Assembly: GCA_018303075.1 (NCBI GenBank) | Contig: JAGVYW010000003.1 | Span: 1,598 to 65,597, forward strand | Direction: 5' to 3' | DNA: 64,000 bases | Source: Candidatus Woesearchaeota archaeon | GTDB lineage: Archaea; Nanobdellota; Nanobdellia; Woesearchaeales; DSVV01 | Program-made: the position numbers and the translations under genes | Part shown: positions 746 to 19,581 of the stretch, piece after piece | Numbering within the stretch: the stretch's first letter is position 1 | Layout of the letters: the number at the start of each line of letters is the position of its first letter | The notes under the pieces: model-generated | What the model was told of the DNA's origin: nothing | Database searches by the model: none | What the model saw: the letters and a program-made list of their open reading frames with translations, nothing else

Positions 746-1077
746 CTTGTATGTTTATTATAAACGCAATAGTTTTACAATACCATAAACAATCGACATC
801 AATATGATAAGTATTGCCATATATATGATTATTCTAACAATGGACGCTTTTTTATTCATAAAAACTTCACCTATAAAAGTCATAATCAGTACTGCAAATT
901 AATTTACGTTCAATTTTTTATTATTGGAAGCGATTGTATTTAAATGTAATGAGAATTTCATAAATTATTTAATTTGTATTTGTATGAGGTATAAACTTCA
1001 CAGTGATAACAAAAAATTTAAAAGTATCTTAGCTATTTTTATGTAATATTTTTAAAGTTGTAAATATTTCTTATCTT

Positions 1078-3647: not shown

Positions 3648-3947
3648 TTATTTTAACAAAGGTATGCAACAAACTAAAGTATCATCTACTTCCTTAGTAC
3701 CTGGCTTTAAACAAACTCTTGATGGATCTGCTATATATCCTTCTGATTCTTTACAACCTACATTGAGTTCAACTCCTGCTGTTTTAGAATTACATTCTGC
3801 ACCTTGCACTGCTTTACATTCACTTAGATTTTTGTTGAATAATGCTAATCTTCCTGTAAAGATATATGTAATAACTACAAGAACAACAATTGCTATGATT
3901 GTAATGATCACAATATTTATTGAAAGGTCTGCTTTTCTTTTTATCAT
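3648..3947 (-). CDS. small (99 aa) Cys-rich secreted protein with pilin-like N-terminal signal/TM (MIKRKA|DLSINIVIITIIAIVVLVVITYIFTG), C-terminal CCxPL
   Basis: Basic N-terminus followed by ~25 hydrophobic residues, 8 Cys in the mature part; paralog of 4023..4298; conserved leader upstream. Confidence 0.6.
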   Translation of the reverse strand: MIKRKADLSINIVIITIIAIVVLVVITYIFTGRLALFNKNLSECKAVQGAECNSKTAGVELNVGCKESEGYIADPSRVCLKPGTKEVDDTLVCCIPLLK

Positions 3948-4439: not shown

Positions 4440-5096
4440 TCAAATCTCAGGACATTCGCTGTTTATGCATAACCAAATCTCAACCACATTCATTGATGAA
4501 CCAGATAATGGCAAAATGTAGGGTTCGACACTTCCGGATGTTGCTGAGCTTAAGGTTTTCATTTTTTCCACATATTTCTCATCTGCTTCATCTGGGAGAG
4601 TGATAAATGGTTTTATAGCAGAATCACCACTAGTAACTTTCATCTCTAATTGATAAGGCATATTGAATTGACCAAGTGAATTATCAAATGAAGTTTGCAG
4701 TGCACATTTAAGATATTCATCTATCTTTTGTATATCTTTGCACTGCAGATTTTGGATTGATGATTGGTATTCTGCATCACATTGCATCATATTGTTTTTT
4801 GCAACTGCAACAATCAGATCCTCCATATCTGTGTCAGGCAAACAAAATGAGTTTGTTTTGAGAAATGCTGAAACCATACTTGAAGATAATTGCTGCTGAT
4901 TATATTCATCCAAAACTTTTGAAGACTTTTTGAAAAAAACAGTTGAAACTGTAAACATGATAATTAATGATATAATTATGAAAATGATTAATAATCCCAT
5001 GATTTCTGTTTGTGACTTTTTAGAAAATGGCTCAATGTGCAATTTTCTAAAGAGTTTTTTACTGTGATTCTTCGTGTTGTGTGTCTTTGCACTCAT
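4440..5096 (-). CDS. membrane-anchored secreted protein (218 aa), third gene of overlapping 3-gene operon; TM IMGLLIIFIIISLIIMFTVSTVFF
   Basis: Overlaps upstream gene by 4 bp; single N-terminal hydrophobic segment after a basic leader. Confidence 0.55.
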   Translation of the reverse strand: MSAKTHNTKNHSKKLFRKLHIEPFSKKSQTEIMGLLIIFIIISLIIMFTVSTVFFKKSSKVLDEYNQQQLSSSMVSAFLKTNSFCLPDTDMEDLIVAVAKNNMMQCDAEYQSSIQNLQCKDIQKIDEYLKCALQTSFDNSLGQFNMPYQLEMKVTSGDSAIKPFITLPDEADEKYVEKMKTLSSATSGSVEPYILPLSGSSMNVVEIWLCINSECPEI

Positions 5097-5659
5097 TTTG
5101 CTACCTCTATTCGAATGTAACCAAAACTGTATTGGTTTGTAATTGGATCATAAAATGTTATCGGCAAAAACATGCTATTAATGGATTTTACGTTTTTTAA
5201 CATATTGTCGAAAAGATTGTCTTTTTTTTCGATGGTTGTGTCAACTTCTTCTGAATTTTCTGAAGAAGCTGTATAGGTTGGATAAACTTCTTTTATTGAG
5301 ATCTTGACGTTTAGAAAGATGTTGTCATAGTATTGCTTAAATTTCTTGCTTTTATCTGAAGTATCCTCTAATCTACTCTTAAAGGCTTCAAACTTTAGCT
5401 TGTCAATGCAGTCAAATTCTTCAATTGCTGCTTGCGTGCAGATAAGTTCTGGCAATGATTTTACCTGCTGAGCAATCTTTAAGGTGTGGAGTTCTAACTG
5501 TTTCTTTTGTTCGTCTCCTGCAGAGATGCTTTGAATTTTAACATAGAAAACTGCACCAATTGTCACTAAAATGAAAAATATCATCAATACAAAGATTGTT
5601 TCTCCTATCTTTAGTTGAGATTTTCTTGTTAATAGTTTCATTAGTACAACCTCGGACAT
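5093..5659 (-). CDS. membrane-anchored secreted protein (188 aa), pilin-like N-terminus (KIG|ETIFVLMIFFILVTIGAVF)
   Basis: Overlaps flanking genes (19 bp and 4 bp); basic-G-E then hydrophobic stretch. Confidence 0.55.
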   Translation of the reverse strand: MSEVVLMKLLTRKSQLKIGETIFVLMIFFILVTIGAVFYVKIQSISAGDEQKKQLELHTLKIAQQVKSLPELICTQAAIEEFDCIDKLKFEAFKSRLEDTSDKSKKFKQYYDNIFLNVKISIKEVYPTYTASSENSEEVDTTIEKKDNLFDNMLKNVKSINSMFLPITFYDPITNQYSFGYIRIEVAK

Positions 5660-6732
5660 CTTCCACCTGGAGCTAAGAGAATCTCTTCATTGAGATCTTC
5701 AAGAGATTGCTTTGCTGCAACAGTAGCAGCAACATCACTTTCAATTTTTACATTAATGGTTGTTCCTAAATTGACATCACTGCCTAAATAATCATATGCG
5801 GTTTTATAATATACAGAACAATGACTTAATGAAGAATCATCTTTTAATTGCCAAGCTTTAAATTGATATAATGAACTAACATATTGGTAACGTTTAAAGG
5901 CTTTCAAAAGATTACATTGATAAACTAATTCATCTTCAGAAAAGATTACGCCAATTAATGTAGGAGTATCAAGATAATAGCTGCCATCTCCTTCTTTAAT
6001 ATTTTCAACTACTTTGTTATTCTTCTTTAATTTTGTAAATGAAAAGCTTCCAGATGGTTCTGGTCTTAACATAAGCACATCAATGTTTCTTGCTTCTTTT
6101 TCTTCTTTTATCTTATCTAACCATGAAGGAAGTTTTCCATCTTCTGAAATATAAATAAATCGCAACAGATACATATTATCAGGATATATTACTGAGGTTG
6201 CACTATTATCTAAAAATTCTACATTTAGAAATTGTGTTTCTGCCATCATACCATATAATTCCTTAGCAAATTGCTTGCTTTTGTCATCGTCATCAGCAAC
6301 AAAATAATAGTAAACATCATCTCTTGTGAGATAGAGCAAGTTGCTAACTTTAAATGGATAATTCCAGTCAAGCGTCCAGGTGATTAATTGTGATTTCTCA
6401 ATCTTTTTTGGAGAGAAGATTGGCAGAAATGCAGTGATTGGCAGAAATGCAGTGTCTTTAGCAATACCACTATCTCCTATCTCAATATTTGACTGACAAT
6501 TATTACCTTTGCATGAACATTCAAATGTTAATGCTGTGTCTTCGATGTTAATCTTGTTTGCTGATTTTGCTGCTTGAGATGCGCCAAGAATTGTTGTGTC
6601 AAGCTGCTGCAAAATGTTTGCGTTTATCTTGATCTCTTGGTTTGTCATGTATTTCTTTGCAATAACTATGAAAAAAACCAGAATAAGAGTACCAACTACT
6701 AAAATATAAATCCAATTGAGCTGCGCTTCCAT
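5641..6732 (-). CDS. membrane-anchored secreted protein (~363 aa), first gene of 3-gene operon; TM WIYILVVGTLILVFFIVIA; Cys-containing extracellular domain
   Basis: ORF track start 6768 again reads the SD as MRRFF; at the position homologous to the ATG of the other leader copies there is ATT (ATT ATA AAT AAG...); next ATG is 6732 (MEAQLNW). Confidence 0.55.
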   Translation of the reverse strand: MEAQLNWIYILVVGTLILVFFIVIAKKYMTNQEIKINANILQQLDTTILGASQAAKSANKINIEDTALTFECSCKGNNCQSNIEIGDSGIAKDTAFLPITAFLPIFSPKKIEKSQLITWTLDWNYPFKVSNLLYLTRDDVYYYFVADDDDKSKQFAKELYGMMAETQFLNVEFLDNSATSVIYPDNMYLLRFIYISEDGKLPSWLDKIKEEKEARNIDVLMLRPEPSGSFSFTKLKKNNKVVENIKEGDGSYYLDTPTLIGVIFSEDELVYQCNLLKAFKRYQYVSSLYQFKAWQLKDDSSLSHCSVYYKTAYDYLGSDVNLGTTINVKIESDVAATVAAKQSLEDLNEEILLAPGGRCPRLY

Positions 6733-6752
6733 AAATGCTTTCTTATTTATAA

Positions 6753-6791
6753 TAAAAAATCTCCTCACTTCGTTCGTCTATTTTTTAAACT
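6753..6791 (-). promoter_or_regulatory. conserved TATA/operator/SD leader, copy D (GAGTTTAAAAAATAGACGAACGAAGTGAGGAGATTTTTT-ATT)
   Basis: Alignment with copies A, B, C, E. Confidence 0.5.
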
Positions 6792-6843: not shown

Positions 6844-7416
6844 TTAACTTGTTGTTGTTGACTTTATTGGTGGATTAGATACTTTTACTCCATTTCCTAA
6901 ACCTATAAATTTAACTTTTATCTCTCCAGCAATTGCTTTAAAACAGATTAATCCTGCAGAATCGTCAACTTTCATCTTTTCAACCAATAATGGATAATCA
7001 GGGACGAATGGAATTGTCATGACGTTCTGGTTTTTTCCAGTCTGCCATGCATCACATATTATTGGATCAACCATTTTCTTTTTATCAGCAGATATTAGTT
7101 GTGACCCTCCACCATCATTTCCACCACAGACAATAGATTTATTTGCTTTACTTGCACCTTCTTTAGATAAATCAAAGAAACAAACATACTGTACTTTTTT
7201 TGGTACAGGAATCTCTTCAATTGTCCATGAACCATATTTTGTGCTGTATTTTTTTGCTGTTGTTTCAAGCGATGTCTTTAAGCTCAGCAGATCAATATCT
7301 TCTGTTGTTTCCATCAATTTCATAATATATTTAACTCCAAAAAATAGGAGCATACCTATAATAACAATTCCTAAGATGTACATTAACATGTCTTGAACTT
7401 GTGCTTTCTTTTTCAT
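6844..7416 (-). CDS. secreted protein with archaeal class-III-like signal peptide (MKKKA|QVQDMLMYILGIVIIGMLLFF), 190 aa
   Basis: K-A-Q followed by hydrophobic helix matches the prepilin-peptidase substrate pattern; alternative start 7428. Confidence 0.55.
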   Translation of the reverse strand: MKKKAQVQDMLMYILGIVIIGMLLFFGVKYIMKLMETTEDIDLLSLKTSLETTAKKYSTKYGSWTIEEIPVPKKVQYVCFFDLSKEGASKANKSIVCGGNDGGGSQLISADKKKMVDPIICDAWQTGKNQNVMTIPFVPDYPLLVEKMKVDDSAGLICFKAIAGEIKVKFIGLGNGVKVSNPPIKSTTTS

Positions 7417-7420
7417 AATA

Positions 7421-7458
7421 AAAAACATCTCACTTTGTTCGTGTTTTTTATATACACA
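7421..7458 (-). promoter_or_regulatory. conserved TATA/operator/SD leader, copy E (GTGTATATAAAAAACACGAACAAAGTGAGATGTTTTTTATT-ATG)
   Basis: Alignment with copies A-D; clear TATA box TATATAAAAAA. Confidence 0.5.
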
Positions 7459-7471
7459 GTACCACGATTTT

Positions 7472-10400
7472 TTACTTCTTCACTTTCTTTCTCAATTCTT
7501 CAATCGCATTGCCTGACTTTCCTTTTACTGTCTTTGCTAATGCTGCGAATGGATCTTGTTTTGCTGCATCTTGCTTTGCTGCAGCTGGTTTTGCAGCAGA
7601 TTGCGGCGGGAATGATGATTTAGTCAGAGGTTGATTTAGTTTTCGATCAGTTGTTGTTGATTGCTTTGTTTGTGATTGTTGCGATACTGTTGTTTTTTCC
7701 TGCAGTTTTGGTGTATCTTTCTTTGCAGATAAACCTAATGAATCGAATTTGCTTAAAATATCTTCACGCTGTCTTTTTCTTAGCTCTTCTTTTTTCTTGC
7801 GCAATTCTGCTGACATAGGCATGAATCTTCCTGCAGATTGACGCGGGAATTGCTGCTGCGATGTGCTTAGAGGTTGTGACTGTGATTTTGAGCTTAATGG
7901 CGACAATTGCTGTGATGAAAATAACGACTTCTGCATAAATTTGATGTAATAATAATATCCTCCTCCACCTAATAAGATAAGGAATAAGAAAATTAGTAAG
8001 AGAATCGTACCTATGCCTGAGCTTTCTTCTTCTGGCTCTTCATCAAGTGATTCATCTGCTGGTTCTTGCCCTATTTCATCTCCTTCACATGCTTCACAGG
8101 ATTTTCCACCACAATCAATGTCTGCCTCATCACCATTTCTTTTGCCGTCAAAACATGATGGTTGAGTGCAAATATTTTTCTCGCAAGAATTTGTCGTACA
8201 ATCACTGTTGAAACTGCATGCTTTTCCTTTTTCACATGCATCGCATAATGTTCCACCGCAATCAATATCTGATTCATCTTGATTTAATATAGTATCTTCG
8301 CATGATGCTTTTTTACAAATATTGTTTAGACATTTTTTTGATGCACAGTCTGAGTCGTTTGTACAAGCGTTGTTATTGGAACATTTAGGACAATTGCCGC
8401 CACAATCTACACCTGACTCATTGATATCTTTCTTATTATTCTTACATAAATCAACTAAATCTGGTTTTCCAATAGTTACTAAACTTTCTGTACTTATTGT
8501 AACACCATCACTCGATGATACTTTCGAAGAAGTCAATCCAACATTGTTTGTTGCTTTTGCACTCCAATAATATTTAGTCTTGTTTAGCAATTTTAAACCT
8601 GAAACTGTAACTTTTGAATCTGTTGTATTTGCCCAACTAAAAACATCAGATGCTCCTTGTTTTGTACCTATTGCGAATTCATAGTATTTAATGCCAGATT
8701 CATTATCTTCATAATTAAACACTGCGCTTAGAGTGTCGAGACTGCTTGTGGTTATACCGTCGTCAATGCTTTTGAATAATGGAGCAGTTGTGTCAACGAT
8801 AAATGAATGGTAACCTAACATCAATTCATCTGCATTCATCAGTTTACAGCTGAAATAATAAGTATATTTTCCATCTTTGAAATCTTTTTCGTTTGATTCG
8901 TGATGTTTGTTTGCTTTATCTCCTTGTTTTGTTGTTGTTAAATTTTCTGTCAAACTATCTTCAATTTGACCAAAACTGCAGTATTCAACTTGCTTTTCTG
9001 TTTCAAGTATAATCTTATGCTTTTTTACTGACGTTAGTAATGGGGGAGATAAAAAGTTCATACCTATTCCATAACTTGTATCTACCTTAAATGTTAATGA
9101 TTTCTTTTCGCTAACGTATTTTGGATCTGTTAAACCATTGTCACACTGCACATAATAAGTGTAATCATCTTTACCATCTGACCTATCTTGTTTATCATCA
9201 ATCCTTTTTATATCTGCTGCAGGATATTCATTGCTTAGTTCTTCCTGATTTATAGTTTTTAATGGAATCTCACCATATCCTGGAAATTTATTGTTCATAT
9301 TAGAATAACTATAATCAGGCTGTCTTGTAAATTTACATTGTGTTAAGTCATCTGTTTTTACAACTAAATTTGTTTTTATTGGGAATTCTGTCAAGGCAGG
9401 AGGATCTTTGTTGTTGCTTGGATCAATTGTTAATGAAGTGATTATTGGAGTTGTATTGTCAAACACTAATAAGAATATCTGCTCTGCTTCTACTGAACCC
9501 TGCAAAAAACATTTTACATAGAATGTTTTTGGAATTCCCTGATCTGCGTCTGTTAATGTTATTTTTTCTGTAAATGTTTTTCCATTACCATTATTGAATT
9601 TATTAGATGGAACAAAGCTTTGCGATTGTGAATAGATACATTCTTTTGCTGTGATATCAAGAGATTCTTTTAGCTTAATCTTAAAATCAAAATCTGGCTT
9701 TTCAGAAATTCCATTAGATGGAGAAACTAATTGAATCAATTGCTCTTGTATTAATGTACGCAGGATGTAATATGATTTTGTTTCTTCAGCTCCAGATCTG
9801 TCAACAGCTGTAATTTTTACTTCATTTAAACCTTCAGCAAGATCAACTGTAATTGATAATTTTTCATTTGCTGGTTTTTCCTCAAAAAATACTGATTGAG
9901 CTGCATCAACACTGATAACTTCAACAGTTACTTTGTTGTTTGCAGGCGAATTTAATACTGCATCTGGATCTTCTATTGTTATCTCTAAATCATATGTTGA
10001 ACCATACCATTGCTTTGGGTTATCTGGAGTTGTAAATTGTGCAAGATAGTCAACGTCAATCTTTGGTGGAAGAGAATCAATCTGGAATTTAACACAATTC
10101 TTCTCTTCAAATAATCCTCCTTTGCCATCAATTACTTTCTCTTGTGATTTGTAGCAAAGCCATTGCTGTGATGCCTGTGAAAATGCTGCATCTATTGAAT
10201 AGATTGGATTGTAAATGTTTTCTTGTTTTGTTGGATCTGGTTCACAAAATGAGTTGCCTTCTGTGTTTTCAGTAATGCAAAAATATGTTTTGTCACAATC
10301 AAATCCTATTGCTGTTTGCCCAAAAAAAATGGACTTTGGATCATCTGAGCAGCTGAAGAATAATTTTTCTGCAATATCTGTTCCTTTGTAAAATAATGAT

Positions 10401-13400
10401 GTATCAAAAGGTTTTGCGTTAATATCTATAATTGTTGTTTTTGGCGCCTGCTTATCAAGCACAAATTGAATCTCATCTTCATGCTGTTGGCCATCAATTG
10501 TACATGAAATAGGATAGATGTATTCCTTGCTTTCACTTAGTGTTATCTTTGAAGAATATTTGTATGCTTTTCCTTCTGGAATCTCTATTTCTTGAGTTTC
10601 TTGGAATGCTGTGCCGCCAACTGTACAATCTGCTTCTGCCAATGTTGTTGCTTCTAATGTGATCTCACCATTGTCTAATATTCCTGTTGGCTGTACATTC
10701 TGGATCATCAAATCTGCATCTACTTTGAGCAAGAAAGAAGTCTCTCCTTTATTACCTAATGAATCTGTGCAAGAAACTGTGTATCTGTAAACTCCATCCT
10801 CTAAATTATTGTATTTTACCTGGAAAGCTTTGCCTGTGTCAATATCAATCTCACTGTTCTGATTATTCTCAAACTTATCTGTACATGTTGCTTCTTCATC
10901 TAATGTTACTGTTATCACAACACTTGATTCTATGTATGGATAGTCAGTATCAGGAATCACTTGATATTTCATAGTTATTTCAGGAGGTTTTCTGTCAACA
11001 TCTATTACTGCAGATTGAACTTCTTCAAGATTATCTGAATAATCAACTGAATAATAATATAGATTGTATAACCCATGATCAATTGGCAATGTAAATTGTT
11101 TGTCTGGTTCTGGTTTGTAGAGTTTGTCTGGATAACATTGAGGGTTAGTTGTTTTGTTATAACAGTAATATGTTTCTTTCAATCCACTTGATGGACGTCC
11201 TCGTACTGAGTCATCTGTCACTGAAAATAATAAATCAACTGTTCTTGTCTTTAATAGTGTCAACAGAATTGTTTTAGGAGGTGTGATGTCTAAAACATTG
11301 CCTAACATCTTATCACCTGGATCTTGAAATCCATCACCATCTGCATCTTTGTAACAATTCCAATCATAATTCTTTGAAGTGTTCCAGTAACATGTAGGAA
11401 TGTTCATGAAATTTATGCTTGGGGTAGTTATTTTATTTGTGCCAGAGATTCTTTTTCCATCTTTGTACTGCACGCCAATTTCTGATTGATCTCCACCATG
11501 ACATTCTTCTGATGTTAGAAAATCAGTGCAAGCGACTTCTGGTTCTGGCGAGCAGACGAAATCATTGACAGCAGTGCCTGCTTTGTAACATTTTGTTTGT
11601 TCTGAACTGAATTTTTTGCATTTGTTAACGTCACAATAATCAAAGATTGCATTGAATGATGATTGTTCACATTGGCTGCAAATATTGAAGTCTATGTTTG
11701 TTTCCTTGCAGATACCTATCCCTAACTCTGGATAAAGCATTGACCATTCACAGTCTCGTGTCAGACATTTGTTGTTAAATGCAACGTCTTTGTTTGTGTT
11801 TTTTAATGCTGAACATGATTCCTTGGTTTTGTAATCTGAACAAACATCAACACTCTTACACTCTTCAAATGCATCTTTGACTGTCTTTGTTGATTCATAA
11901 TAACATAATGGCACTTCCATGCAATCTTTTCCATTAAAATCATCATCATCATTTATTAATTTACTTTGTTTTGATGCATACATATTGAAAGGATTGCCGC
12001 AGAAGATGCAAGCGCTTTGATAGACGCAACTTGCAAATCCTTTTTCATCTGGACCATAGCAATATTTATTTGGACCTTGTTTTTCACAGAATGTATCTCC
12101 TGGATCATTTTTTCCTTTTGATTTTAACTGATTCTTTTCATCACAAGAATATATCTCTGTATCATAAGTTGTAAAATCTTTTAAAGGGGTTTTAATACAG
12201 AACTCTGAACCTTGTTTGTATGGTGTTATCAAACAAATTTCACTACCTGAACTTTCACAGACTACGTCTGAATCTATTTTTTTAGTTGTTTTGGGATAAT
12301 TTGCCCGCACTACATAACAATAGTTTTTGTTTGCTTCAATCTTATTATCAATTAAATCAGGTGAAAGAGTATTTTCAATATTAGGTGACCATTTACCTGT
12401 ATCTGCTGTTGCAGGTGTTAAACAATCTTCTTTTGTGCCAATACAACGAAGTAATGTTACAGGTACAGGACAATTTTTTATGTCATAATTAATGATAATC
12501 TCTTTTTTACCTGCAATATGATTTATTTTTGTGATTGTAAATGGTTTTGAGCTTGTTGCATCCTGACAAGCTGGACATTCATCACAAGAATCTGGAATAC
12601 CGTCTTTATCACAATCGTTTGATTCACCTGTACAGCATACCCAGAAATTGTTCACTGATTTGATATATTTTGCATAAGTTTTTGTTGAAACTTTACAAGC
12701 TGCAGGCCAAGTATCTGGAGATTTTGTTGGAGTTGTTGAATCATCACATTTTAAACCATTGCATTCAATATCTTCACAATCTATCTGCGAGTTATCGTTG
12801 TTATCAATGCCATCATTACAAATTTCTGTTTTTGGGCAGTTTTCTAGTTTAATTTCATCACCATATTTGCCATTTTTACATTCGATAACCTCCTGGCAAC
12901 CATCATCGTCAATACTAACTGCTAACTTGTCACCATCTTTACAATCTTTTGGCGGTTGATCTTCACATTTCTTTCCAATATATGAATCTTGTTTATCATA
13001 ACAGTATTTGCCAGCGCCACATTTCTTACCACCGCAATCACAATCTGTATCTGGCTTTGTTAAGCAAGTAGATAAGCCAAGCTCTGAATTCATTGCTTTT
13101 GAAGTACAATCTTGATCATTGCTTGCATCTGACCCATAATCTGTTTTTCCATCATCATCATTATCAATGCCGTCATCACAAGCAGTGCCTGTTTTTGGAG
13201 CTGTTGCATCTTTTTCCTGCTTACAATAATCCACACAATTTGCTGCAGTGTATGAATTATATTTATCATTGTCTTCAATGAGTGATTTTTTATTGAATAC
13301 ACCAACTTTATCATCTTCACAAAATTTTATTGATACGTCAAATTCTGCTCCAATTTGAGAATTAGATGCAGTATAACAGCAGCAACCTAACTCGCAAATC

Positions 13401-13615
13401 GTAGGAGCTTTTGGATCTGGATCAATAATACCATCTGAAGAACTGCATTCTTCGGCTGTTAATGCAGTACACTGCCCAGAACCAGGGATATAACATTCAA
13501 AGTAATCTGTATCATCAGCAGAAGTTTTTTGCAAATTTAAGAGAATACTAACTAATAAAACTATTAATATACCTATAACTACAACAAACCTCTTTTTACT
13601 TATGTATTTTAACAT
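7472..13615 (-). CDS. giant (2047 aa) type-I membrane surface protein: signal peptide, ~1850-aa Cys-rich ectodomain with DGIDNDDDG calcium-binding-like motifs and three CGGxxCxxCxxGxxC modules, TM (GIGTILLLIFLFLILLGGGGYYYY), ~160-aa S/Q/K/P-rich cytoplasmic tail
   Basis: Single uninterrupted ORF; N-terminal MLKYISKKRFVVVIGILIVLLVSILL signal; >120 Cys; C-terminal hydrophobic helix then low-complexity tail with KKKEELRKRQRE. Confidence 0.7.
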   Translation of the reverse strand: MLKYISKKRFVVVIGILIVLLVSILLNLQKTSADDTDYFECYIPGSGQCTALTAEECSSSDGIIDPDPKAPTICELGCCCYTASNSQIGAEFDVSIKFCEDDKVGVFNKKSLIEDNDKYNSYTAANCVDYCKQEKDATAPKTGTACDDGIDNDDDGKTDYGSDASNDQDCTSKAMNSELGLSTCLTKPDTDCDCGGKKCGAGKYCYDKQDSYIGKKCEDQPPKDCKDGDKLAVSIDDDGCQEVIECKNGKYGDEIKLENCPKTEICNDGIDNNDNSQIDCEDIECNGLKCDDSTTPTKSPDTWPAACKVSTKTYAKYIKSVNNFWVCCTGESNDCDKDGIPDSCDECPACQDATSSKPFTITKINHIAGKKEIIINYDIKNCPVPVTLLRCIGTKEDCLTPATADTGKWSPNIENTLSPDLIDNKIEANKNYCYVVRANYPKTTKKIDSDVVCESSGSEICLITPYKQGSEFCIKTPLKDFTTYDTEIYSCDEKNQLKSKGKNDPGDTFCEKQGPNKYCYGPDEKGFASCVYQSACIFCGNPFNMYASKQSKLINDDDDFNGKDCMEVPLCYYESTKTVKDAFEECKSVDVCSDYKTKESCSALKNTNKDVAFNNKCLTRDCEWSMLYPELGIGICKETNIDFNICSQCEQSSFNAIFDYCDVNKCKKFSSEQTKCYKAGTAVNDFVCSPEPEVACTDFLTSEECHGGDQSEIGVQYKDGKRISGTNKITTPSINFMNIPTCYWNTSKNYDWNCYKDADGDGFQDPGDKMLGNVLDITPPKTILLTLLKTRTVDLLFSVTDDSVRGRPSSGLKETYYCYNKTTNPQCYPDKLYKPEPDKQFTLPIDHGLYNLYYYSVDYSDNLEEVQSAVIDVDRKPPEITMKYQVIPDTDYPYIESSVVITVTLDEEATCTDKFENNQNSEIDIDTGKAFQVKYNNLEDGVYRYTVSCTDSLGNKGETSFLLKVDADLMIQNVQPTGILDNGEITLEATTLAEADCTVGGTAFQETQEIEIPEGKAYKYSSKITLSESKEYIYPISCTIDGQQHEDEIQFVLDKQAPKTTIIDINAKPFDTSLFYKGTDIAEKLFFSCSDDPKSIFFGQTAIGFDCDKTYFCITENTEGNSFCEPDPTKQENIYNPIYSIDAAFSQASQQWLCYKSQEKVIDGKGGLFEEKNCVKFQIDSLPPKIDVDYLAQFTTPDNPKQWYGSTYDLEITIEDPDAVLNSPANNKVTVEVISVDAAQSVFFEEKPANEKLSITVDLAEGLNEVKITAVDRSGAEETKSYYILRTLIQEQLIQLVSPSNGISEKPDFDFKIKLKESLDITAKECIYSQSQSFVPSNKFNNGNGKTFTEKITLTDADQGIPKTFYVKCFLQGSVEAEQIFLLVFDNTTPIITSLTIDPSNNKDPPALTEFPIKTNLVVKTDDLTQCKFTRQPDYSYSNMNNKFPGYGEIPLKTINQEELSNEYPAADIKRIDDKQDRSDGKDDYTYYVQCDNGLTDPKYVSEKKSLTFKVDTSYGIGMNFLSPPLLTSVKKHKIILETEKQVEYCSFGQIEDSLTENLTTTKQGDKANKHHESNEKDFKDGKYTYYFSCKLMNADELMLGYHSFIVDTTAPLFKSIDDGITTSSLDTLSAVFNYEDNESGIKYYEFAIGTKQGASDVFSWANTTDSKVTVSGLKLLNKTKYYWSAKATNNVGLTSSKVSSSDGVTISTESLVTIGKPDLVDLCKNNKKDINESGVDCGGNCPKCSNNNACTNDSDCASKKCLNNICKKASCEDTILNQDESDIDCGGTLCDACEKGKACSFNSDCTTNSCEKNICTQPSCFDGKRNGDEADIDCGGKSCEACEGDEIGQEPADESLDEEPEEESSGIGTILLLIFLFLILLGGGGYYYYIKFMQKSLFSSQQLSPLSSKSQSQPLSTSQQQFPRQSAGRFMPMSAELRKKKEELRKRQREDILSKFDSLGLSAKKDTPKLQEKTTVSQQSQTKQSTTTDRKLNQPLTKSSFPPQSAAKPAAAKQDAAKQDPFAALAKTVKGKSGNAIEELRKKVKK

Positions 13616-13729
13616 AGTATTTATCTTGTTTCAGAGAATTGAAGTATATATACTTTTGTATTTATCGTATGCCGAAAAATACAAAACATTTATATATAAC
13701 AATAACCTTACAAATTGTAGTGGAATTGT

Positions 13730-13972
13730 ATGGATACTGTAGAATATACAATAAGACCAACAAAACATTTCATATTTGGCTGGATGAAAAAATGGGATTA
13801 TGATATAGAATTACTCAGAACAGCTTTAGAAACAGCATATAAAATAGAAAAAGTTGGAAAAATTAAATATGAAGCTTATTTTAGAGCAAAAGGTAAAAGC
13901 AGAAAATTAATATTTGTTAAAGATGATGTTGCCAAAGATATAATCATAATAACAGGAGCTGAAGGAAAATGA
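13730..13972 (+). CDS. small toxin-like protein (80 aa), DUF4258-like (…KLIFVKDDVAKDIIIITGAEGK)
   Basis: ATGA 4-bp overlap with downstream zinc-ribbon gene; C-terminal h-x-h-V...IITay pattern recalled for DUF4258 toxins that pair with YgiT/MqsA-type antitoxins. Confidence 0.4.
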   Translation: MDTVEYTIRPTKHFIFGWMKKWDYDIELLRTALETAYKIEKVGKIKYEAYFRAKGKSRKLIFVKDDVAKDIIIITGAEGK

Positions 13973-14352: not shown

Positions 14353-15918
14353 TTAAGATTCTGGCTTAGAAAAAACCAATACTCTCGCTAATTGATAATC
14401 ACATTTGTTTGCATCGTCGCAAGCAACTATCTTAATTGGATAATAACCTAGTTCTGGAAAAGAAACTTCTGTTACAAGTGTATCTGTGGATAACAAGTCA
14501 CAAGATTCAAATGATGATATGATTGAATCAAACTTATTTTTATCCAGAACATCGTTTGGATTTACAATACAAGGTGCAGAAGTTGATGTAGAATACATTG
14601 CGTAACTCTGTTGATCCATTGCACCAGCTATATGAAAATCTTCATCAGGATCATATGCTTTTACTTCAATTTGAGCAGCTGAACCTGCTTCTAAGACAAT
14701 ATCTACATATTTTCCTAATTCTACCATCTGGTGTGATTCTAAATCTTCTGCTGCACTTAAATCTTTAATTAGATCAATTGCAGGAACTCTGTTTTGGAGT
14801 GCAACTTGAAATCTATAAGGTTCTCCGTCAATAAGTTTTGATGAATCTTCAATCACTAATATGTCATCGTATGCTGGATCATTATTCTGGTCATTAGGGC
14901 TGCTTGAAATGCCAACATTGTTTAACTTGTAAATTTTCATCTTTTGTTTTAAGCATTGATATTTAATCAGTTTTCCGTCTTTAACTGCATCGCATAACTG
15001 CATGTCTTCATTTGCTGCATCTTGAGTCATGTCAAAGAAGATATTGTTAATATCATTTTTTATTAGATATGAAACTAAAGCATGAATCTGCTTGATATGA
15101 ATTGGAACAAGCACTTTGTTTTTAATGAATGCAATATCTGATTGCTGGCCTTCATTGATGATTTTGCCTGATAATGTTAAAACAGCTTCAACACCTTCTT
15201 CTTTGATAACAATTGTAGTATTTGCTTCTCCAAGAACAGCTTTTCCCTGATCAACTAATTCTTTTAATTCTGGAAAGTTTTCTAATTTAATGCAAGACTT
15301 GACTTTTTCATTAATGTATTTTTCTAACAAGTCTTGAATTGAAAATGATTCTGGCTTATTTAAATCATAACTATTTGGATGAGTGCCACAAAAAAATAAC
15401 TTTTTTTGATCCTCTGTTAATCTATTTAAGTCACATAATGGAACTAATGGCATAAAGCCGGGGTAATTTCCAAACGGATTTTGGATATTGTAGACTGATT
15501 TTGGATCTTTTACTAATTTTACAATACCATAAGGATACTGAGGAACATCAGGATGGTTGCCAAAAAATTTTGGGGCAGTTAATCCATAAGCAACTGTTGT
15601 TTTTGTTTCTGTCTTATCTTTATATTTGAGTGATTTCACATCTGTAATCTGCAAAGCTCCAGGAATTCCGTTTTCTGCTTCAAAGATTGCTCCGCCTTGT
15701 CTGCCAAGCAAAACTAAACCTTCAGTTGTTGTCTGCTCTAAGCAAGAATCAATATATTTATTGTACTTTTTTATCTTTGCCTGTATGTCTACCTGTTTCT
15801 GCTGCTCAACTTCTGACTTTTTTTCAGTTGAAGAATGTAATAAATTATAAACTAGGAAGATTGAACCTAATACAACAATACCTATTATTACAAAAAATGT
15901 GATTTGGGCTTTTTTCAT
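14353..15918 (-). CDS. secreted protein (521 aa) with class-III-like signal peptide (MKKA|QITFFVIIGIVVLGSIFLV)
   Basis: K-A-Q then hydrophobic helix; 6-bp gap to upstream giant gene, so a 2-gene operon. Confidence 0.6.
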   Translation of the reverse strand: MKKAQITFFVIIGIVVLGSIFLVYNLLHSSTEKKSEVEQQKQVDIQAKIKKYNKYIDSCLEQTTTEGLVLLGRQGGAIFEAENGIPGALQITDVKSLKYKDKTETKTTVAYGLTAPKFFGNHPDVPQYPYGIVKLVKDPKSVYNIQNPFGNYPGFMPLVPLCDLNRLTEDQKKLFFCGTHPNSYDLNKPESFSIQDLLEKYINEKVKSCIKLENFPELKELVDQGKAVLGEANTTIVIKEEGVEAVLTLSGKIINEGQQSDIAFIKNKVLVPIHIKQIHALVSYLIKNDINNIFFDMTQDAANEDMQLCDAVKDGKLIKYQCLKQKMKIYKLNNVGISSSPNDQNNDPAYDDILVIEDSSKLIDGEPYRFQVALQNRVPAIDLIKDLSAAEDLESHQMVELGKYVDIVLEAGSAAQIEVKAYDPDEDFHIAGAMDQQSYAMYSTSTSAPCIVNPNDVLDKNKFDSIISSFESCDLLSTDTLVTEVSFPELGYYPIKIVACDDANKCDYQLARVLVFSKPES

Positions 15919-15924
15919 AAAAAA

Positions 15925-18900
15925 CTATCCATTTACTGGTAATTCCATCTGATTGCTGCTTAAAATAGCAGCTAATTGCGGTGAGATAATTGGTTCTATT
16001 GCTGGAACAAGTGCTGGATTTATTGGAATTGCCTGCAGTTGCTGTCTTATGCGAAGCTTTGATGTAAGATCTGAAAATTTATTATAAGGAATTCCATTTT
16101 CGTCTTCTGTCTTTGTAAATAAGTAAGTCAATGAACTTGTAGATATTGGAATCATATTACAGTAAATATCCTGATCTGCCTGAGCAATTTTAGTACAGTC
16201 AATATTTTGATTGAATATGCCGATAATTGGATTGAAATAAATTATTGCCGTAAAATAACGAAGCGAATGGCTTCCTGTCTCTCCAGAGCTAGGATCCCAT
16301 TTTCTTTCTGTAATTCCAAATATCAATTGGTTTGCTGCAATGTTTTTTAGCAGATAGAAATTATTGAAATCTGCAATCTCAGCAATTATATCAGAACCTT
16401 GAAAACTCTTTGATTTAAATGCATCAAGCTCTTTTTGACTTGAATGTAATCCGATTAATGTATTTGCGAATCCTTTCAATTGGCTGTTGTGTTTATTATA
16501 ATTCTCCTGTATATCTTTTAAATTATTTATACCATTCTTATTATAGATAATTGCCTTTAGCTTGTTGTTGTAATAAAGATGTTCTGAACATTTCTTGTAG
16601 ATACCATAACGGGAGCTGTCTTCTTCTTTTATATCACATTTAGCTGCATCCTCATCAAAGAAATCCCCGCTTTTTACAAAGCCAAGTGTATTGAATAATT
16701 CTGTTGGATCAAATGTGATTGAATCTTGTTCTGTGTTTTCTGATTCAACCTTATTAACTGTAACACCAAGATAGGTTTGATCTTTGACCTTTAAAATACA
16801 GAAACTATTGACTGCATCTTTGATAAGAATATTTGCAGCTTCTGTTTCTGCTGATATAGAATTGTAATTTAATGTTTGGTCAGCTGGAGCACAATGCAAT
16901 GTGAATTCATTGTCTCCTGCGATGTCTAACAATTGTATTGCTAATACTTTTGTCCTGCTTGACCATTCTGCATTGACAAGCTGGTTGTTCTTGTAGACTG
17001 GCTCGCAGAGATGATCCTTGTGAAAAAAGAATTCTTTGTTAGTGCAGAGAGAGATACCCCCAGATTTCAATTCGAGGTCTTCTGCATATTCTTCGAGATT
17101 AAGCGAACCTTCTTTGATTGTTGTATATTTTTGATCACATTGATCTTCATCATCATATGCTGCGCTTGGACAAGCACATGAGAATGATTCTGTGCAAAGA
17201 TTGCTGCCGTCTTGTTTTAATGTTTCCAATTCAATTGTGTCATTGTACCAGTTATATTTTGGTGTTGGTTCTTTCCATTCTCCACCTTTGCAGATGTAGA
17301 ACTTACCATCTCCTGTTGTTTCAGATGATACTGCTTCCCCTTCACTAACACAATTTGGTCCATCTTCATCTTCTGCAGGATTCCAGCAGGAGTTTGCAAA
17401 ACAACAACTTGAATAATCATAAGAATCTTTATCTACCCATGGAACTGTGGAGAGTTTCATTGGAATCTCTTCGAGCTCTAAGTTCTTTGCTTTTGAATCT
17501 GTAAGAATTAACTCTTCTGCGGGATAACCTAGCTTTACTGCTGTTTTAAGTGCTTCTTTTTCTTCATCGCTTAAAGTATCTGTTTCTTTAATGTTGTCTT
17601 CATTAAACACTAAAAAAGTATTATCTGGCAAACATGCAGAAATATATTTGTTTGTATTATCAATTGCAATTCTTTTTGCTTGGCAAGTATTGTAGTTTCG
17701 TTCAAGAGAGAATAAAGGTTCTTCTTGAGGTTCTAAAGCATCATTGCTTGTGATAAAATGAAATGCTGATGGAATAATAGGTGTTATAGTTGCTGTTTGT
17801 AATGCATTACAAGTCCAGATTTTTCCTTTGACTGCGTAGTAGCCTTGTTTTGAATTATCATCAATTGGATCATTGAATGGTTTTGCATAATCAATGTAAG
17901 TTGATTTGACACAAGCGCCGTTTGGAATCTTTAAAAGATTGCCGTCAATACTGTCATGTGTTGGATTTTCTTCATTATAAGTTATTTCTTTTCTTTCTTT
18001 TGTTTCGTAATTAAATTCCTGCATACAACAACGAGAACCTGTCCATCTGCCACTTAAGTAGAAATTACAAACATTATGAAGATAAGGATCGAATTTATTT
18101 TCTTCTTCTGGAGATTTAAGATCTTCCTTTACATATTCAGGATTTTGGCGGAGAACTGCGGTATCTTCAGATTCTATGGTGAAATCAATATCACTCGTTG
18201 AACTTGTAATTTTTGCAGCTTCATCGAGAGTTATCCATTCAAAAACATCTCCTTTGCCTTGATCAAAGTAGTGATTGCAATAGAGTGGTACTTTTTTCTC
18301 CCCTAATTTATATAAACCTAAATCTGTTGTTCCTAATCCGCGCAGTTTAACTTTGTTTTTAGTTCCAAAGTTTCCTTTATCATAATCTTTTCGAGGATAT
18401 GGGTTGCTTGTACAACGATATGCACCTGTTTCTGAATCAATTATTTGTATTGGTTCTCCATATTCTTTGTTATCTACACCCTCAACAATAGTTGGATATA
18501 AACAGAGTTTTTCTTGATTAGAATAATCTACTATTTCTGTTTCCTCAGGATGATTCAATGATATCTTTTGCTTGTTTTCGTTATAATTAATTACTTTATT
18601 TGTCAACCATATATAATCGTCACCACAGCATGCAACTTTTGCATTGTTGTTAAAATTAGTAATACTTCCAATTTTTTGATTATCCATATATGTACCAATA
18701 CATTGATTAGAATTCCCATCCCAATCTACTTGGTACATAAATCCTGTTTCTTCACCAAACATTACTGCAGTTCCTAAATATTCTTTTTGATATGTTTTAA
18801 CCTCTTTTGTATATGTAATCTCTGGATTAGACTGAGATTCAACTGTTGTTTGTGTTGCTTCACCTGATCTTCCTGATAAACTAAAAACTCTTGGAATCTG

Positions 18901-19581
18901 CTCATCTGGTTTTTTTCCTTCATTCTTTTTATACCATTCTTGGTCATTTCTAATGTAATATCTACAATGCCCATCATTTCTTTTTGCTTCAGAAATAGTA
19001 TTGTCATAGTTATCATTTTTCTTTGCTTCATAACTTATAAAAAGTTCTCTATAAGGTTCAGAATTAAATACACCTGATTTATCAAATGGAATATTGATTG
19101 ATGGTGGATTTGATGAAAAATCAGTCTTAAGAAACTCATTAATTTTCCCATCATAACCCTCTTTATCAGCATATGTTTTTCTAATTACAAATGGTTTTCC
19201 AACGTAAGATTTTTTTATATCCTTATCTTTATCAGACTGAAGCCCATAATAATCTGGATTAAAACAGATTATTCCTACTTCTAATCTTAATTTCGTATCA
19301 CCTTCATAAGATTCTGTTGCTCCAGAACTACTTGGCTGTTTATTTGGATCCAATTCACCTTCATTATAGTTTTGATCTGTCAGAATTATATCTGATTCTT
19401 GTGGGGAGATTTTATCACTTTTTTCATCACCCTCGACTGAATCATCTTCAATTTCTTCAGGAGGTTCATCTCCTTGTTCAGCAACAATCACTTTAGAAAG
19501 CACACTTATTAGTACTATAATTAGAACTATAAATATCAAATACTTGCTTGTATTCCCCTTTTCCATAAATATCCTAATCAA
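15925..19581 (-). CDS. large (1218 aa) secreted/anchored surface protein, Cys-containing, no recognisable enzymatic motif
   Basis: N-terminus MEKG|NTSKYLIFIVLIIVLISVL hydrophobic; acidic linker then large globular region with paired Cys. Confidence 0.6.
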   Translation of the reverse strand: MIRIFMEKGNTSKYLIFIVLIIVLISVLSKVIVAEQGDEPPEEIEDDSVEGDEKSDKISPQESDIILTDQNYNEGELDPNKQPSSSGATESYEGDTKLRLEVGIICFNPDYYGLQSDKDKDIKKSYVGKPFVIRKTYADKEGYDGKINEFLKTDFSSNPPSINIPFDKSGVFNSEPYRELFISYEAKKNDNYDNTISEAKRNDGHCRYYIRNDQEWYKKNEGKKPDEQIPRVFSLSGRSGEATQTTVESQSNPEITYTKEVKTYQKEYLGTAVMFGEETGFMYQVDWDGNSNQCIGTYMDNQKIGSITNFNNNAKVACCGDDYIWLTNKVINYNENKQKISLNHPEETEIVDYSNQEKLCLYPTIVEGVDNKEYGEPIQIIDSETGAYRCTSNPYPRKDYDKGNFGTKNKVKLRGLGTTDLGLYKLGEKKVPLYCNHYFDQGKGDVFEWITLDEAAKITSSTSDIDFTIESEDTAVLRQNPEYVKEDLKSPEEENKFDPYLHNVCNFYLSGRWTGSRCCMQEFNYETKERKEITYNEENPTHDSIDGNLLKIPNGACVKSTYIDYAKPFNDPIDDNSKQGYYAVKGKIWTCNALQTATITPIIPSAFHFITSNDALEPQEEPLFSLERNYNTCQAKRIAIDNTNKYISACLPDNTFLVFNEDNIKETDTLSDEEKEALKTAVKLGYPAEELILTDSKAKNLELEEIPMKLSTVPWVDKDSYDYSSCCFANSCWNPAEDEDGPNCVSEGEAVSSETTGDGKFYICKGGEWKEPTPKYNWYNDTIELETLKQDGSNLCTESFSCACPSAAYDDEDQCDQKYTTIKEGSLNLEEYAEDLELKSGGISLCTNKEFFFHKDHLCEPVYKNNQLVNAEWSSRTKVLAIQLLDIAGDNEFTLHCAPADQTLNYNSISAETEAANILIKDAVNSFCILKVKDQTYLGVTVNKVESENTEQDSITFDPTELFNTLGFVKSGDFFDEDAAKCDIKEEDSSRYGIYKKCSEHLYYNNKLKAIIYNKNGINNLKDIQENYNKHNSQLKGFANTLIGLHSSQKELDAFKSKSFQGSDIIAEIADFNNFYLLKNIAANQLIFGITERKWDPSSGETGSHSLRYFTAIIYFNPIIGIFNQNIDCTKIAQADQDIYCNMIPISTSSLTYLFTKTEDENGIPYNKFSDLTSKLRIRQQLQAIPINPALVPAIEPIISPQLAAILSSNQMELPVNG

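Follow-up and report, generated by a model that had tools for sequence, protein, structure and literature searches.

A disulfide-rich, membrane-anchored surface protein encoded at the head of a conserved operon of predicted pilin-like genes in Woesearchaeota

The 64-kb window (the whole stretch of DNA analysed) carries a gene, here designated X, which is a real gene of a Woesearchaeota (DPANN) archaeon and encodes a disulfide-rich cell-surface protein. Judged from sequence comparison, X leads a conserved, widespread and previously undescribed operon of pilin-like genes. We consider it probable (about 0.6) that the protein belongs to a type IV filament (pilus-like) attachment system of Woesearchaeota, as a variable, adhesin-like component anchored in the membrane. 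Its importance lies not in a receptor-like look; it is the constant anchor and tail that mark it as the lead gene of a pilin-like operon.

Gene X and membrane topology of its product

The features that define the gene and its membrane topology were as follows.

7472..13615, minus strand: gene X, 2047 aa, ATG start (ORF listing, homologues, dN/dS 0.20)
13517..13615, minus strand: predicted Sec-type signal peptide, aa 1-33, with basic n-region, 17-aa h-region and TSA|DD (hydropathy)
8018..8077, minus strand: acidic juxtamembrane linker EIGQEPADESLDEEPEEESS
7946..8017, minus strand: single TM helix GIGTILLLIFLFLILLGGGGYYYY (hydropathy), ending GGGGYYYY, a family signature; helix pLDDT ~83
7475..7945, minus strand: cytoplasmic tail, 157 aa, Cys-free, pI 10.5, K/S/Q-rich, containing KKKEELRKRQRE

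Since the ORF is present and the dN/dS of 0.20, calculated against a 76%-identical ortholog, indicates purifying selection, gene X is taken as real and selected. Homologues were found in Woesearchaeota and the replication genes in the window were archaeal, and the host was therefore assigned to this group. No match was obtained to any arCOG/Pfam-type family testable here. It was also noticed that a TATA-like element, apparently the gene's own, lies ~40 nt 5′ of the ATG.

Hydropathy analysis revealed only two hydrophobic segments, aa 4-33 and aa 1863-1891, the first of which is signal-like and ends in ...KTSA|DD, with A-x-A-like sites recurring among the homologues. The ectodomain has a pI of 4.4 (net charge -125) versus 10.5 (net charge +20) for the tail. 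The protein has 102 Cys residues, fewer than the >120 previously estimated for the ectodomain, and none in the tail; they make up 5.6% of the ectodomain, compared with a mean of 1.3% and a maximum of 3.4% in the 24 other ORFs of the window. Across five homologues at ~30% identity, 92 of the 102 were invariant, which supports an ectodomain facing outside. Together with the signal peptide, the Cys-free tail, the positive-inside charge asymmetry and an FN3/Ig-like stalk, these invariant Cys residues support a predicted type I topology with the large domain outside and the tail inside, and no sign of a large domain inside the cell was seen. The order of signal peptide, ectodomain, single TM and tail proposed in the earlier note was thus borne out, and its positions for the DGIDN motifs, CGG modules and TM were all accurate to within tens of bases.

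A C-terminal TM anchor under a huge ectodomain is an ordinary layout for archaeal surface proteins, and X shares its signal peptide, very large ectodomain and C-terminal anchor with tetrabrachion of Staphylothermus and the haloarchaeal S-layer glycoprotein. Such a giant anchored ectodomain with Ig/FN3-like folds under purifying selection could belong to the main envelope (S-layer/stalk) protein, a tetrabrachion-like spacer building a pseudo-periplasm, with the pilin-like neighbours needing X only for crossing the envelope. This is unlikely, however, for several reasons. The PGF-CTERM signal was looked for in X and not found, so that X is not the PGF-CTERM S-layer protein that it might have been, and no other known S-layer anchor or family was matched. 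Unlike tetrabrachion and the haloarchaeal PGF-CTERM glycoproteins, X has a 157-aa tail in place of a few basic residues, and we know of no S-layer anchor with a long conserved cytoplasmic tail of this kind. The ectodomain has fewer N-glycosylation sequons than expected (9 observed versus 17 +/- 4), a deficit that is out of the ordinary for a surface protein exposed on an archaeon and that sets X apart from these glycoproteins. Furthermore, at one operon slot the ectodomains of orthologous loci differ in composition and run from ~1050 to 2200 aa in length, which is unexpected for a lattice-former. In favour of an envelope role, some Ig-rich proteins of TFF loci look like S-layer proteins and may prepare the wall for passage of the filament (bioRxiv 10.64898/2026.04.22.720090).

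Domain organization of the ectodomain

From the tip to the membrane, the ectodomain is composed of the following parts.

11306..13516, minus strand: Cys-rich head, aa 34-770, 64 Cys, which takes in the tip and the acidic repeats
13181..13516, minus strand: distal tip, aa 34-145, the fastest-evolving part of gene X
13106..13180, minus strand: acidic double-disulfide repeat 1, CDDGIDNDDDGKTDYGSDASNDQDC, putative Ca-binding; DGIDN starts at aa 148
12746..12820, minus strand: acidic double-disulfide repeat 2, CNDGIDNNDNSQIDCEDIECNGLKC; DGIDN starts at aa 268
8786..11305, minus strand: beta-sandwich stalk, aa 771-1610; a conserved Cys pair recurs every ~100 aa, and VDxxxP motifs mark the boundaries
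8456..8785, minus strand: membrane-proximal FN3-like domain, aa 1611-1720 (Foldseek on a moderate-confidence model)
8078..8446, minus strand: CGG modules, two full and one truncated, aa 1724-1772, 1772-1821 and 1821-1846

The distal tip showed 58% identity and a dN/dS of 0.36, compared with 0.20 for the whole gene. The region of aa ~300-770 is private to this archaeal family, and the AF2 model of the head was unusable (pLDDT 38). Matches of the stalk to Pfam families (Big_13, Y_Y_Y, Cadherin-like, Glucodextran_B) were all sub-threshold, and the model of aa 1611-1720 matched FN3/Ig domains in Foldseek (E ~7e-3, probability up to 1.0).

The two acidic repeats form a direct repeat at the DNA level. 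Their CxDGIDNxDxxxxD...C motifs share the pattern of PF11617, PF02412 and NF033662, and profile searches through them, the repeat 1 region included, recovered proteins annotated with these families (PF11617/PF02412 for repeat 1), but the scores were below the curated thresholds, as in the match of repeat 2 to NF033662 (23.1 bits, cut-off of 41). The likeness to MopE/thrombospondin type 3 repeats suggested earlier therefore holds, sub-threshold, for these two N-terminal repeats; it does not extend to the CGG modules, whose 8 Cys follow a different pattern and which fall outside those families.

Alignment of the CGG modules gave the consensus CxDGxxNxDETDVDCGGxCxxCxxGxxCxxDSDCxSxxCxxxxC. Three tandem modules had been described; two are full and the third is cut off, its CGGKSCEACEG leading directly into the acidic linker. 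Predicted structures had a pLDDT of 70-84, for which Foldseek returned no structural match, and no significant match was found in Pfam, NCBIfam or PDB, nor in Pfam even for a protein with ~24 copies. The second half, GxxCxxDSDCxSxxCxxxxC, aligns weakly (E 0.04-5) with the Dickkopf/colipase fold and the DPY module of Dumpy, but this similarity is not significant and the N-terminal half, NxDETDVDCGG, is unmatched.

The operon and its relation to type IV filament systems

The genes surrounding X are listed below.

15925..19581, minus strand: 1218-aa secreted or anchored protein upstream of X, 32 Cys, no family match
14353..15918, minus strand: 521-aa protein upstream of X, pilin-like N-terminus (MKKAQITFF...)
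6844..7428, minus strand: gene A, 194 aa, MKKKAQ N-terminus followed by a hydrophobic helix (class-III-signal-like)
5641..6768, minus strand: gene B, 375 aa, pilin-like N-terminus, orthologs in other loci
5093..5659, minus strand: gene C, 188 aa, with ...RKSQLKIGE before a hydrophobic helix
4440..5096, minus strand: gene D, 218 aa (ORF as drawn), in which ...KKSQTE precedes a hydrophobic helix
4023..4313, minus strand: small pilin candidate, 96 aa, KKNGDLSIN, hydrophobic helix, FTGR, 6 Cys
3648..3947, minus strand: paralogous small pilin candidate, 99 aa, KRKADLSIN..., 6 Cys

In 11 related loci (L001-L010 and the P0004 contig, with the cassette checked in all but L005 and the X remnant of L009 inverted), an X-type protein with the C-terminal cassette described below adjoins four orthologous class-III-signal (pilin-like) genes, A-D. 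X lies directly 5′ of A-D in most of them, and small pilin-like genes usually come next. Of the 8 further loci compared, 6 yielded an ortholog of gene A (none was found in L005 or L007), and gene B is the best-conserved marker of the operon, with 1,298 representative clusters at E<=1e-3. The 521-aa protein, conserved in L001 and L007, belongs to the operon module with less certainty; the 1218-aa protein, conserved in L001 and weakly in L007, is possibly an accessory. That X is a stand-alone surface protein in a coincidental neighbourhood is highly improbable and already disfavoured: it would fit the lack of TFF ATPase and platform genes in the 64-kb window and the gene's apparent TATA-like element, but X and A-D are adjacent in 11 of 11 sampled loci despite ~25-30% identity and different ectodomains, and the genes either overlap or are separated by short gaps.

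Every group of these pilin-like proteins carries the signature K-K-[A/S/G]-Q/D followed by ~20 hydrophobic residues. Because neither A-D nor the small proteins matched a pilin family in Pfam, NCBIfam or PDB, we infer their pilin identity from this N-terminal pattern and from linkage. X itself can be no conventional filament subunit, since the orientation of its type I anchor is opposite to that of a pilin helix. In L003, the one sampled locus with adjacent TFF ATPase/platform genes, a T2SSE (PilB-type) ATPase and two T2SSF (PilC-type) platform genes lie ~5.7 kb from X, a set matching the 'system 1' arrangement (ATPase and two platform genes) reported for methanogens and DPANN (bioRxiv 10.64898/2026.04.22.720090).

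According to the same preprint, archaeal TFF loci frequently encode large, Ig-rich adhesin-like proteins, and those of system 1/2 and subsystem 4A/4G are, like X, large, extracellular, multi-beta-sandwich proteins beside class-III-signal proteins (bioRxiv 10.64898/2026.04.22.720090). The earlier description of X as eukaryote-receptor-like and unusual for archaea was thus overstated, and no eukaryotic receptor domain was detected. X differs from these proteins in its Sec signal, C-terminal TM, long motif-bearing cytoplasmic tail, Cys-rich head and CGG modules, none of which is described there. The earlier note was made without the operon context, which is decisive for X.

One large protein with Ca-type acidic motifs accompanied by four small minor-pilin-like genes also parallels the generally known fimU-pilVWX-pilY1 and GspHIJK arrangements, in which logic B (~350 aa) is much larger than the others and the small major-pilin candidates are separate. 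By analogy, X could be a PilY1-like filament-tip adhesin, cleaved or extracted from its anchor and displayed by an A-D tip complex, and PilY-like adhesins are known in archaeal TFF subsystems (bioRxiv 10.64898/2026.04.22.720090). We hold this to be distinctly unlikely: no PilY1/PilC-type domain, PilY1 beta-propeller or vWA domain was detected in X, A-D show no detectable homology to bacterial minor pilins, and X is membrane-anchored with a cytoplasmic tail and no evident cleavage site. The TM and tail are the family's most constant parts and under purifying selection, which argues that they have a role in the mature protein and are not removed from it.

The cytoplasmic tail and the constant C-terminal cassette

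Two motifs were recognized in the tail.

7745..7831, minus strand: tail motif 1, a basic helix (predicted) followed by ILSKF, family pattern [ILVMF][FLIMV]xxF
7475..7552, minus strand: tail motif 2, C-terminal amphipathic basic helix (predicted) PFAALAKTVKGKSGNAIEELRKKVKK, recurring in the family

Motif 1 occurred in 15 of 27 tails, very distant relatives included, compared with a shuffle mean of 1.26 and a maximum of 5, which lends support to the earlier idea that the tail tethers a partner; motif 2 is near-invariant, with one substitution relative to the 76% ortholog. Asked whether it is conserved or hypervariable, the tail proved to be the former between close relatives (72% identity, dN/dS 0.22). 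The tail is probably a docking site for a conserved partner in the cytoplasm. Proteins at the same operon slot range from 1047 to 2207 aa with variable ectodomains and a constant C-terminal cassette, which comprises the CGG modules, the TM ending in GGGGYY and the K-rich tail with its basic helix and ΦFxxF motif; the GGGGYY signature is kept in ~25 cassette proteins.

A signalling or mechanosensory type I receptor, relaying ligand binding or tension on the ectodomain via the tail, perhaps once an intramembrane protease has cut at the GGGG hinge, would also be in keeping with the conserved short linear motifs on the cytoplasmic side and with the Gly4-Tyr hinge at the TM's inner end. On the P0004 contig, a presenilin/SPP homologue does lie ~4.5 kb from the X operon. 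Such a role seems very unlikely, as this protease linkage was seen in one locus only, no signalling domain was found in the tail, and basic low-complexity tails may merely bind lipid head groups.

As an adhesin-like filament component, X would be exported through its Sec-type signal peptide and anchored by the single TM helix. The Cys-rich head would be carried by a stalk, built from some nine to ten beta-sandwich domains, and by the three small CGG (Cys-knot) modules, which together would hold it tens of nanometres off the membrane. The other operon products would carry class-III (prepilin-type) signal peptides, and it is these neighbours, the lead position of X and the PilB/PilC genes in one relative that point to such a component. 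Binding specificity would be supplied by the ectodomain, as it is greatly divergent between lineages and its tip evolves fastest, and the constant cassette, with both tail motifs, would couple X to a conserved partner, most plausibly a component of the filament machinery in the membrane or cytoplasm. Within this cassette, the CGG modules are widespread in bacteria and Woesearchaeota.

Gene X and its operon

The 2047-aa open reading frame claimed in the earlier note (gene X, positions 7472-13615) was confirmed on the minus strand with an ATG start. That observation is essentially right, the DGIDN motifs and CGG modules having been placed correctly to within tens of bases, except that the count of Cys residues was 102 instead of more than 120. 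The window is archaeal, because it encodes MCM, PolD DP1/DP2, Cdc6, TBP and a PAN-like ATPase, and the closest homologue of X (76% identity) is annotated as Candidatus Woesearchaeota. Comparison with this ortholog gave a dN/dS of 0.20 over the whole gene, the fastest-changing part being the distal tip (aa 34-145; 58% identity, dN/dS 0.36). The composition of X is far from chance: Cys made up 5.6% of the ectodomain and 0% of the tail, compared with a mean of 1.3% and a maximum of 3.4% in 24 other ORFs of the window, and the ectodomain was acidic (pI 4.4, net charge -125) and the tail basic (pI 10.5, net charge +20).

The operon context of X, missing from the earlier note, is the main new result of this analysis. 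Four genes (A to D) and two paralogous small ORFs come after X, overlapping or separated by short gaps:

7472-13615, minus strand: X, 2047 aa
downstream of X: A, 194 aa
downstream of A: B, 375 aa
downstream of B: C, 188 aa
downstream of C: D, 218 aa
3648-4313, minus strand: the two small ORFs, 96 and 99 aa

X directly preceded A-B-C-D in the window, in the related loci L001-L004, L006-L008 and L010, and on the contig of P0004, a homologous protein; in L005, a second large gene separated X from the B and C genes, and A and D were undetectable. The small genes came next in most related loci, and BLAST confirmed the orthology of each group in most loci. The slot of X was occupied by proteins of 1047 to 2207 aa with differing ectodomains and an identical type of C-terminal cassette, consisting of CGG modules, a transmembrane segment (TM) ending in GGGGYY and a K-rich tail. 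This synteny disfavours a merely coincidental neighbourhood of X and the pilin-like genes, which is highly improbable.

A class III signal was recognized by a short basic N-terminus, G/A/S at -1 and a hydrophobic helix of about 20 residues, a pattern present at the N-termini of A to D and of both small ORFs. All groups start with K-K-[A/S/G]-Q/D followed by about 20 hydrophobic residues, kept across loci; this is the pattern of archaeal class III (prepilin peptidase) signals, Gln being the +1 residue. The small proteins have six Cys and the consensus MxKK[GA][QDE]xLSxN-IIIAAIALLVLVV-IFTGR. By this N-terminal pattern, A to D and the small ORFs are putative pilin-like proteins. Scans of all operon neighbours, A to D and the small proteins included, against Pfam and NCBIfam at E<=10 revealed no pilin or other family, A giving only a chance-level T4SS_pilin match (E 0.034, Pfam). 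Profile searches of PDB with the small pilin candidates and group B returned generic TM helices or noise only, and none of the operon proteins tested had a significant match in sequence searches of Pfam, NCBIfam and PDB. Relatives of B formed 1,298 representative clusters (<=50% identical) at E<=1e-3 and 851 at E<=1e-10, indicating that the system is widespread.

Some variation was noticed around the module. In L009 (83-835, minus strand, and 869-1291, plus strand), a fragment of the X cassette with TSP3-like repeats, a TM (...GSYFGYATYK) and a tail containing LISSFGEE lay on the strand opposite a truncated A and intact B-C-D; either the module has been inverted or rearranged there, or the assembly is at fault. 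A second very large protein was often encoded immediately upstream of X, as in L004 (127-7719, 2530 aa), L006 (1-7900, >3208 aa) and L008 (1-4002, 1333 aa), with hints of CarboxypepD_reg and Big_13 in those of L004 and L006; in the window, 1218-aa and 521-aa proteins (14353-19581) take its place.

Topology and ectodomain of X

Hydropathy analysis revealed only two hydrophobic segments in X, aa 4-33 and aa 1863-1891. The first, in which a basic n-region and a long h-region precede the putative junction ...KTSA/DD, is a Sec-type signal with A-x-A-like sites that recur in homologues; the second is GIGTILLLIFLFLILLGGGGYYYY (TM at nt 7946-8017). Of the 102 Cys, 92 were invariant across five members sharing only about 30% identity, with no Cys in any tail, and an acidic linker before the TM and a basic tail (+20) after it gave a positive-inside charge pattern. 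The signal and single C-terminal TM, the confinement of invariant Cys to the outside, the charge asymmetry, the beta-sandwich character of the stalk and the FN3/Ig-like fold of the membrane-proximal domain agree in predicting a type-I single-pass protein with the large domain outside and the tail inside, as had been proposed. Such an anchor cannot serve as a conventional pilin helix.

Table. Predicted organization of X (minus strand)
aa 34-770: head; 64 Cys and two acidic double-disulfide motifs
aa 771-1610: stalk; sub-threshold Big_13, Y_Y_Y and Cadherin-like matches, VDxxxP boundary motifs
aa 1611-1720: FN3-like domain; membrane-proximal, matches FN3/Ig folds
aa 1724-1846: CGG modules; two full and one partial
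aa 1847-1866: acidic linker; EIGQEPADESLDEEPEEESS
aa 1867-1890 (nt 7946-8017): TM; single helix ending GGGGYYYY
aa 1891-2047 (nt 7475-7945): tail; 157 aa, basic, Cys-free, contains KKKEELRKRQRE

Two other sorting routes were considered and rejected. A class III signal on X does not hold, since the KRG/F-like sites of its homologues P0002 and P0003 are not kept in the window protein and the A-x-A Sec sites are. PGF-CTERM proteins carry Pro-Gly-Phe directly before the C-terminal TM, followed by only a few basic residues; X has no PGF and a 157-aa tail after its TM, and NCBIfam listed no PGF-CTERM model even at E<=1, so that an archaeosortase-sorted S-layer protein was rejected. Neither an inverted topology nor homologs of the ordinary PGF-CTERM type, both named beforehand as speaking against the proposal, were found. 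A role of X as an envelope or S-layer stalk protein is rather unlikely.

It was also noticed that the NCBI-annotated start of P0001 (2051 aa, the closest homologue; L001, 9920-16156) leaves out the signal peptide; with 27 more codons at the upstream end, its ORF begins MLKYISKKGLGVVIG..., as in the window protein.

Past aa ~300, the head is private to a few archaeal proteins. A profile search with it did not deepen the alignment and matched only proteins sharing the short acidic repeat, and the AF2 head model from five sequences (pLDDT 38) was not usable for fold search. Profile matches through the acidic-motif region carried annotations of the PF11617, PF02412 and NF033662 types. In X itself, a CxDGxDNDxDG...DC-type motif is visible, scoring 23.1 bits against NF033662, below the cut-off of 41, and Pfam listed neither PF11617 nor PF02412 at E<=1. 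In the stalk, a conserved pair of Cys recurs about every 100 aa, and self-BLAST showed no repeats of sequence within it.

Two further ideas on the surface of X were abandoned. N-x-S/T sequons were depleted in the ectodomain (window 7475-13516; 9 observed vs 17.3 +/- 3.8 in shuffles), which is unexpected in an exposed archaeal surface protein, and heavy N-glycosylation was therefore dropped from the supporting evidence. Diversification by a DGR was rejected because a TR/VR pair was absent, the sole direct repeat of at least 45 nt in window 1-24000 being the pair of acidic motifs of X; no reverse transcriptase was present among the scanned ORFs of the window.

CGG modules

Of the three CGG modules claimed, two are complete, and the third is truncated, its CGGKSCEACEG running directly into the acidic linker. 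The module spans about 48 aa with 8 Cys, the consensus CxDGxxNxDETDVDCGGxCxxCxxGxxCxxDSDCxSxxCxxxxC and the spacing C-x13-CGG-x1-2-C-x2-C-x5-C-x5-C-x4-C-x4-C, and was modelled at pLDDT 70-84. P0005, a cassette-bearing protein with ~24 copies, had no Pfam match at E<=1, so Pfam does not cover the module. Against PDB, sequence profiles gave weak Dumpy/Dickkopf-like similarity and nothing significant; Foldseek with the C-terminal model recognized only the FN3-like domain, the CGG modules matching nothing. In fusions with many extracellular domains, the module occurs widely among Myxococcota, Bacteroidota, Pseudomonadota and Woesearchaeota. The proposed MopE/TSP3 likeness does not apply to the CGG modules, which have an 8-Cys pattern of their own and no HMM membership; by motif, that likeness appears to belong to the N-terminal acidic motifs of X. 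Between the CGG modules and the TM, TSP3-like acidic repeats (DxDxDGMxDxWE...DPxxxD) were seen in P0004, P0005, P0007 and the X protein of L010; the window protein has just a plain acidic linker there.

Membrane anchor and tail

In about 27 cassette proteins, the TM ended in G-G-G-G-Y-Y-x-Y and the tails were Cys-free and K-rich. In 15 of 27 tails, [ILVMF][FLIMV]xxF (ILSKF in that of the window protein) came directly after a basic helix; 500 composition-preserving shuffles averaged 1.26 such tails and never exceeded 5. Many tails also had an amphipathic basic helix at the C-terminal end. AF2 predicted helices at exactly these two sites and disorder elsewhere. The kept motifs and predicted helices suggest that the tail carries short linear motifs binding a conserved cytoplasmic partner, so that the earlier idea of a tethering tail is plausible and now testable. 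Against the 76%-identity ortholog, the tail had 72% identity and a dN/dS of 0.22, with indels only in Q/S/T-rich spacers, and so is not hypervariable.

X resembles eukaryotic type-I receptors (Notch, RTK, integrin-like) in layout only. Its tail is of low complexity with two short helices, and Pfam and NCBIfam revealed no EGF, LNR or similar domains and no cytoplasmic signalling domains; the eukaryote-like receptor framing was thus overstated. It is very unlikely that X is a receptor for signalling or mechanosensing, perhaps with cleavage inside the membrane. A weak lead for such a role is a presenilin/signal-peptide-peptidase homologue (PF01080, PF06550) on the P0004 contig (12506-13543), about 4.5 kb past the downstream end of the X operon. 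Type-I TM proteins are substrates of presenilin-type proteases, and a link of this homologue to the GGGG hinge in the anchor of X is speculative.

Possible relation to type IV filaments and role of X

The prevailing view of DPANN archaea is that they live in attachment to other cells, and to our knowledge almost nothing is known of how Woesearchaeota attach. In L003, a T2SSE (PilB-type) ATPase gene and two T2SSF (PilC-type) platform genes were located ~5.7 kb from the X module; no such genes were found in the 64-kb window or in the flanks of the other sampled loci. An ATPase with two platform genes is the arrangement of the archaeal type IV filament (TFF) "system 1" of methanogens and DPANN, and large Ig-rich adhesin-like proteins of unassigned function recur in archaeal TFF loci, according to a recent preprint (bioRxiv 10.64898/2026.04.22.720090). 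We consider it probable (roughly 0.6) that X is the membrane-anchored, variable, adhesin-like part of a type IV filament module for attachment in Woesearchaeota, adhesion being what we infer from architecture, variability and context. The constant CGG-TM-tail cassette would couple X to a conserved partner, for which the filament machinery is the most plausible candidate. A cleaved PilY1-like tip adhesin is unlikely: bacterial PilY1/PilC has a C-terminal beta-propeller, whereas X ends in FN3, CGG modules, TM and tail, and the PilY1 propeller (Neisseria_PilC family) was absent from X in Pfam at E<=1.

There is a small chance that the CGG-TM-GGGGYY-tail cassette is a dedicated coupling module joining an interchangeable extracellular adhesin to the DPANN type IV filament motor or platform. 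The link would be made by the basic helix with PhiFxxF and the C-terminal amphipathic helix of the tail, and regulated intramembrane cleavage at the Gly4 hinge might occur. If so, prokaryotes would have a "receptor-to-motor" link, integrin- or PilY1/FimV-like, through a type-I membrane protein; cells could then sense force from outside to inside, or adhesion could trigger the control of filament dynamics.

Giant DPANN surface proteins and adhesin-like proteins in archaeal TFF loci are already known in kind. The X-A-B-C-D-pilin module, the type-I anchor with its tail motifs and the CGG family had no description in the libraries or literature searched, and the X family was not described in the papers searched on Woesearchaeota Cys-rich surface proteins, DPANN giant adhesins or the DVDCGG string. 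With this analysis, an odd giant ORF has become a defined, testable seven-gene module. Its marker, B, has about 1,300 distinct relatives among public data and matched nothing in Pfam or, by sequence profile, PDB. X keeps a constant anchor and tail and swaps ectodomains, as would be expected of a protein that determines host or substrate specificity and plugs into a conserved machine. The ~48-aa CGG Cys module and the cytoplasmic tail motif are two unmodelled elements worth curating as families.

Genes flanking the operon

Two overlapping small ORFs of 80 and 113 aa (13730-14310, plus strand) lie between the 521-aa gene and X, the latter ORF having an N-terminal CxxC...CxxC and a weak MazE/AbrB-type C-terminus (E 0.018). 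Because the equivalent gap in L001 is only ~150 nt, they have the look of a toxin-antitoxin-like cassette that was inserted here. An A/T-rich TATA-like element, aaagtatatatactt (13625-13665), about 40 nt upstream of the X ATG, suggests that X has its own promoter after this cassette. At the other end, the gene for a 304-aa protein (2699-3613, minus strand) starts 34 nt past the last of the small pilin-like ORFs; the protein has an N-terminal MazE/AbrB (SpoVT) DNA-binding domain (26.9 bits vs the Pfam cut-off of 24.7) and could be a regulator of the X operon.
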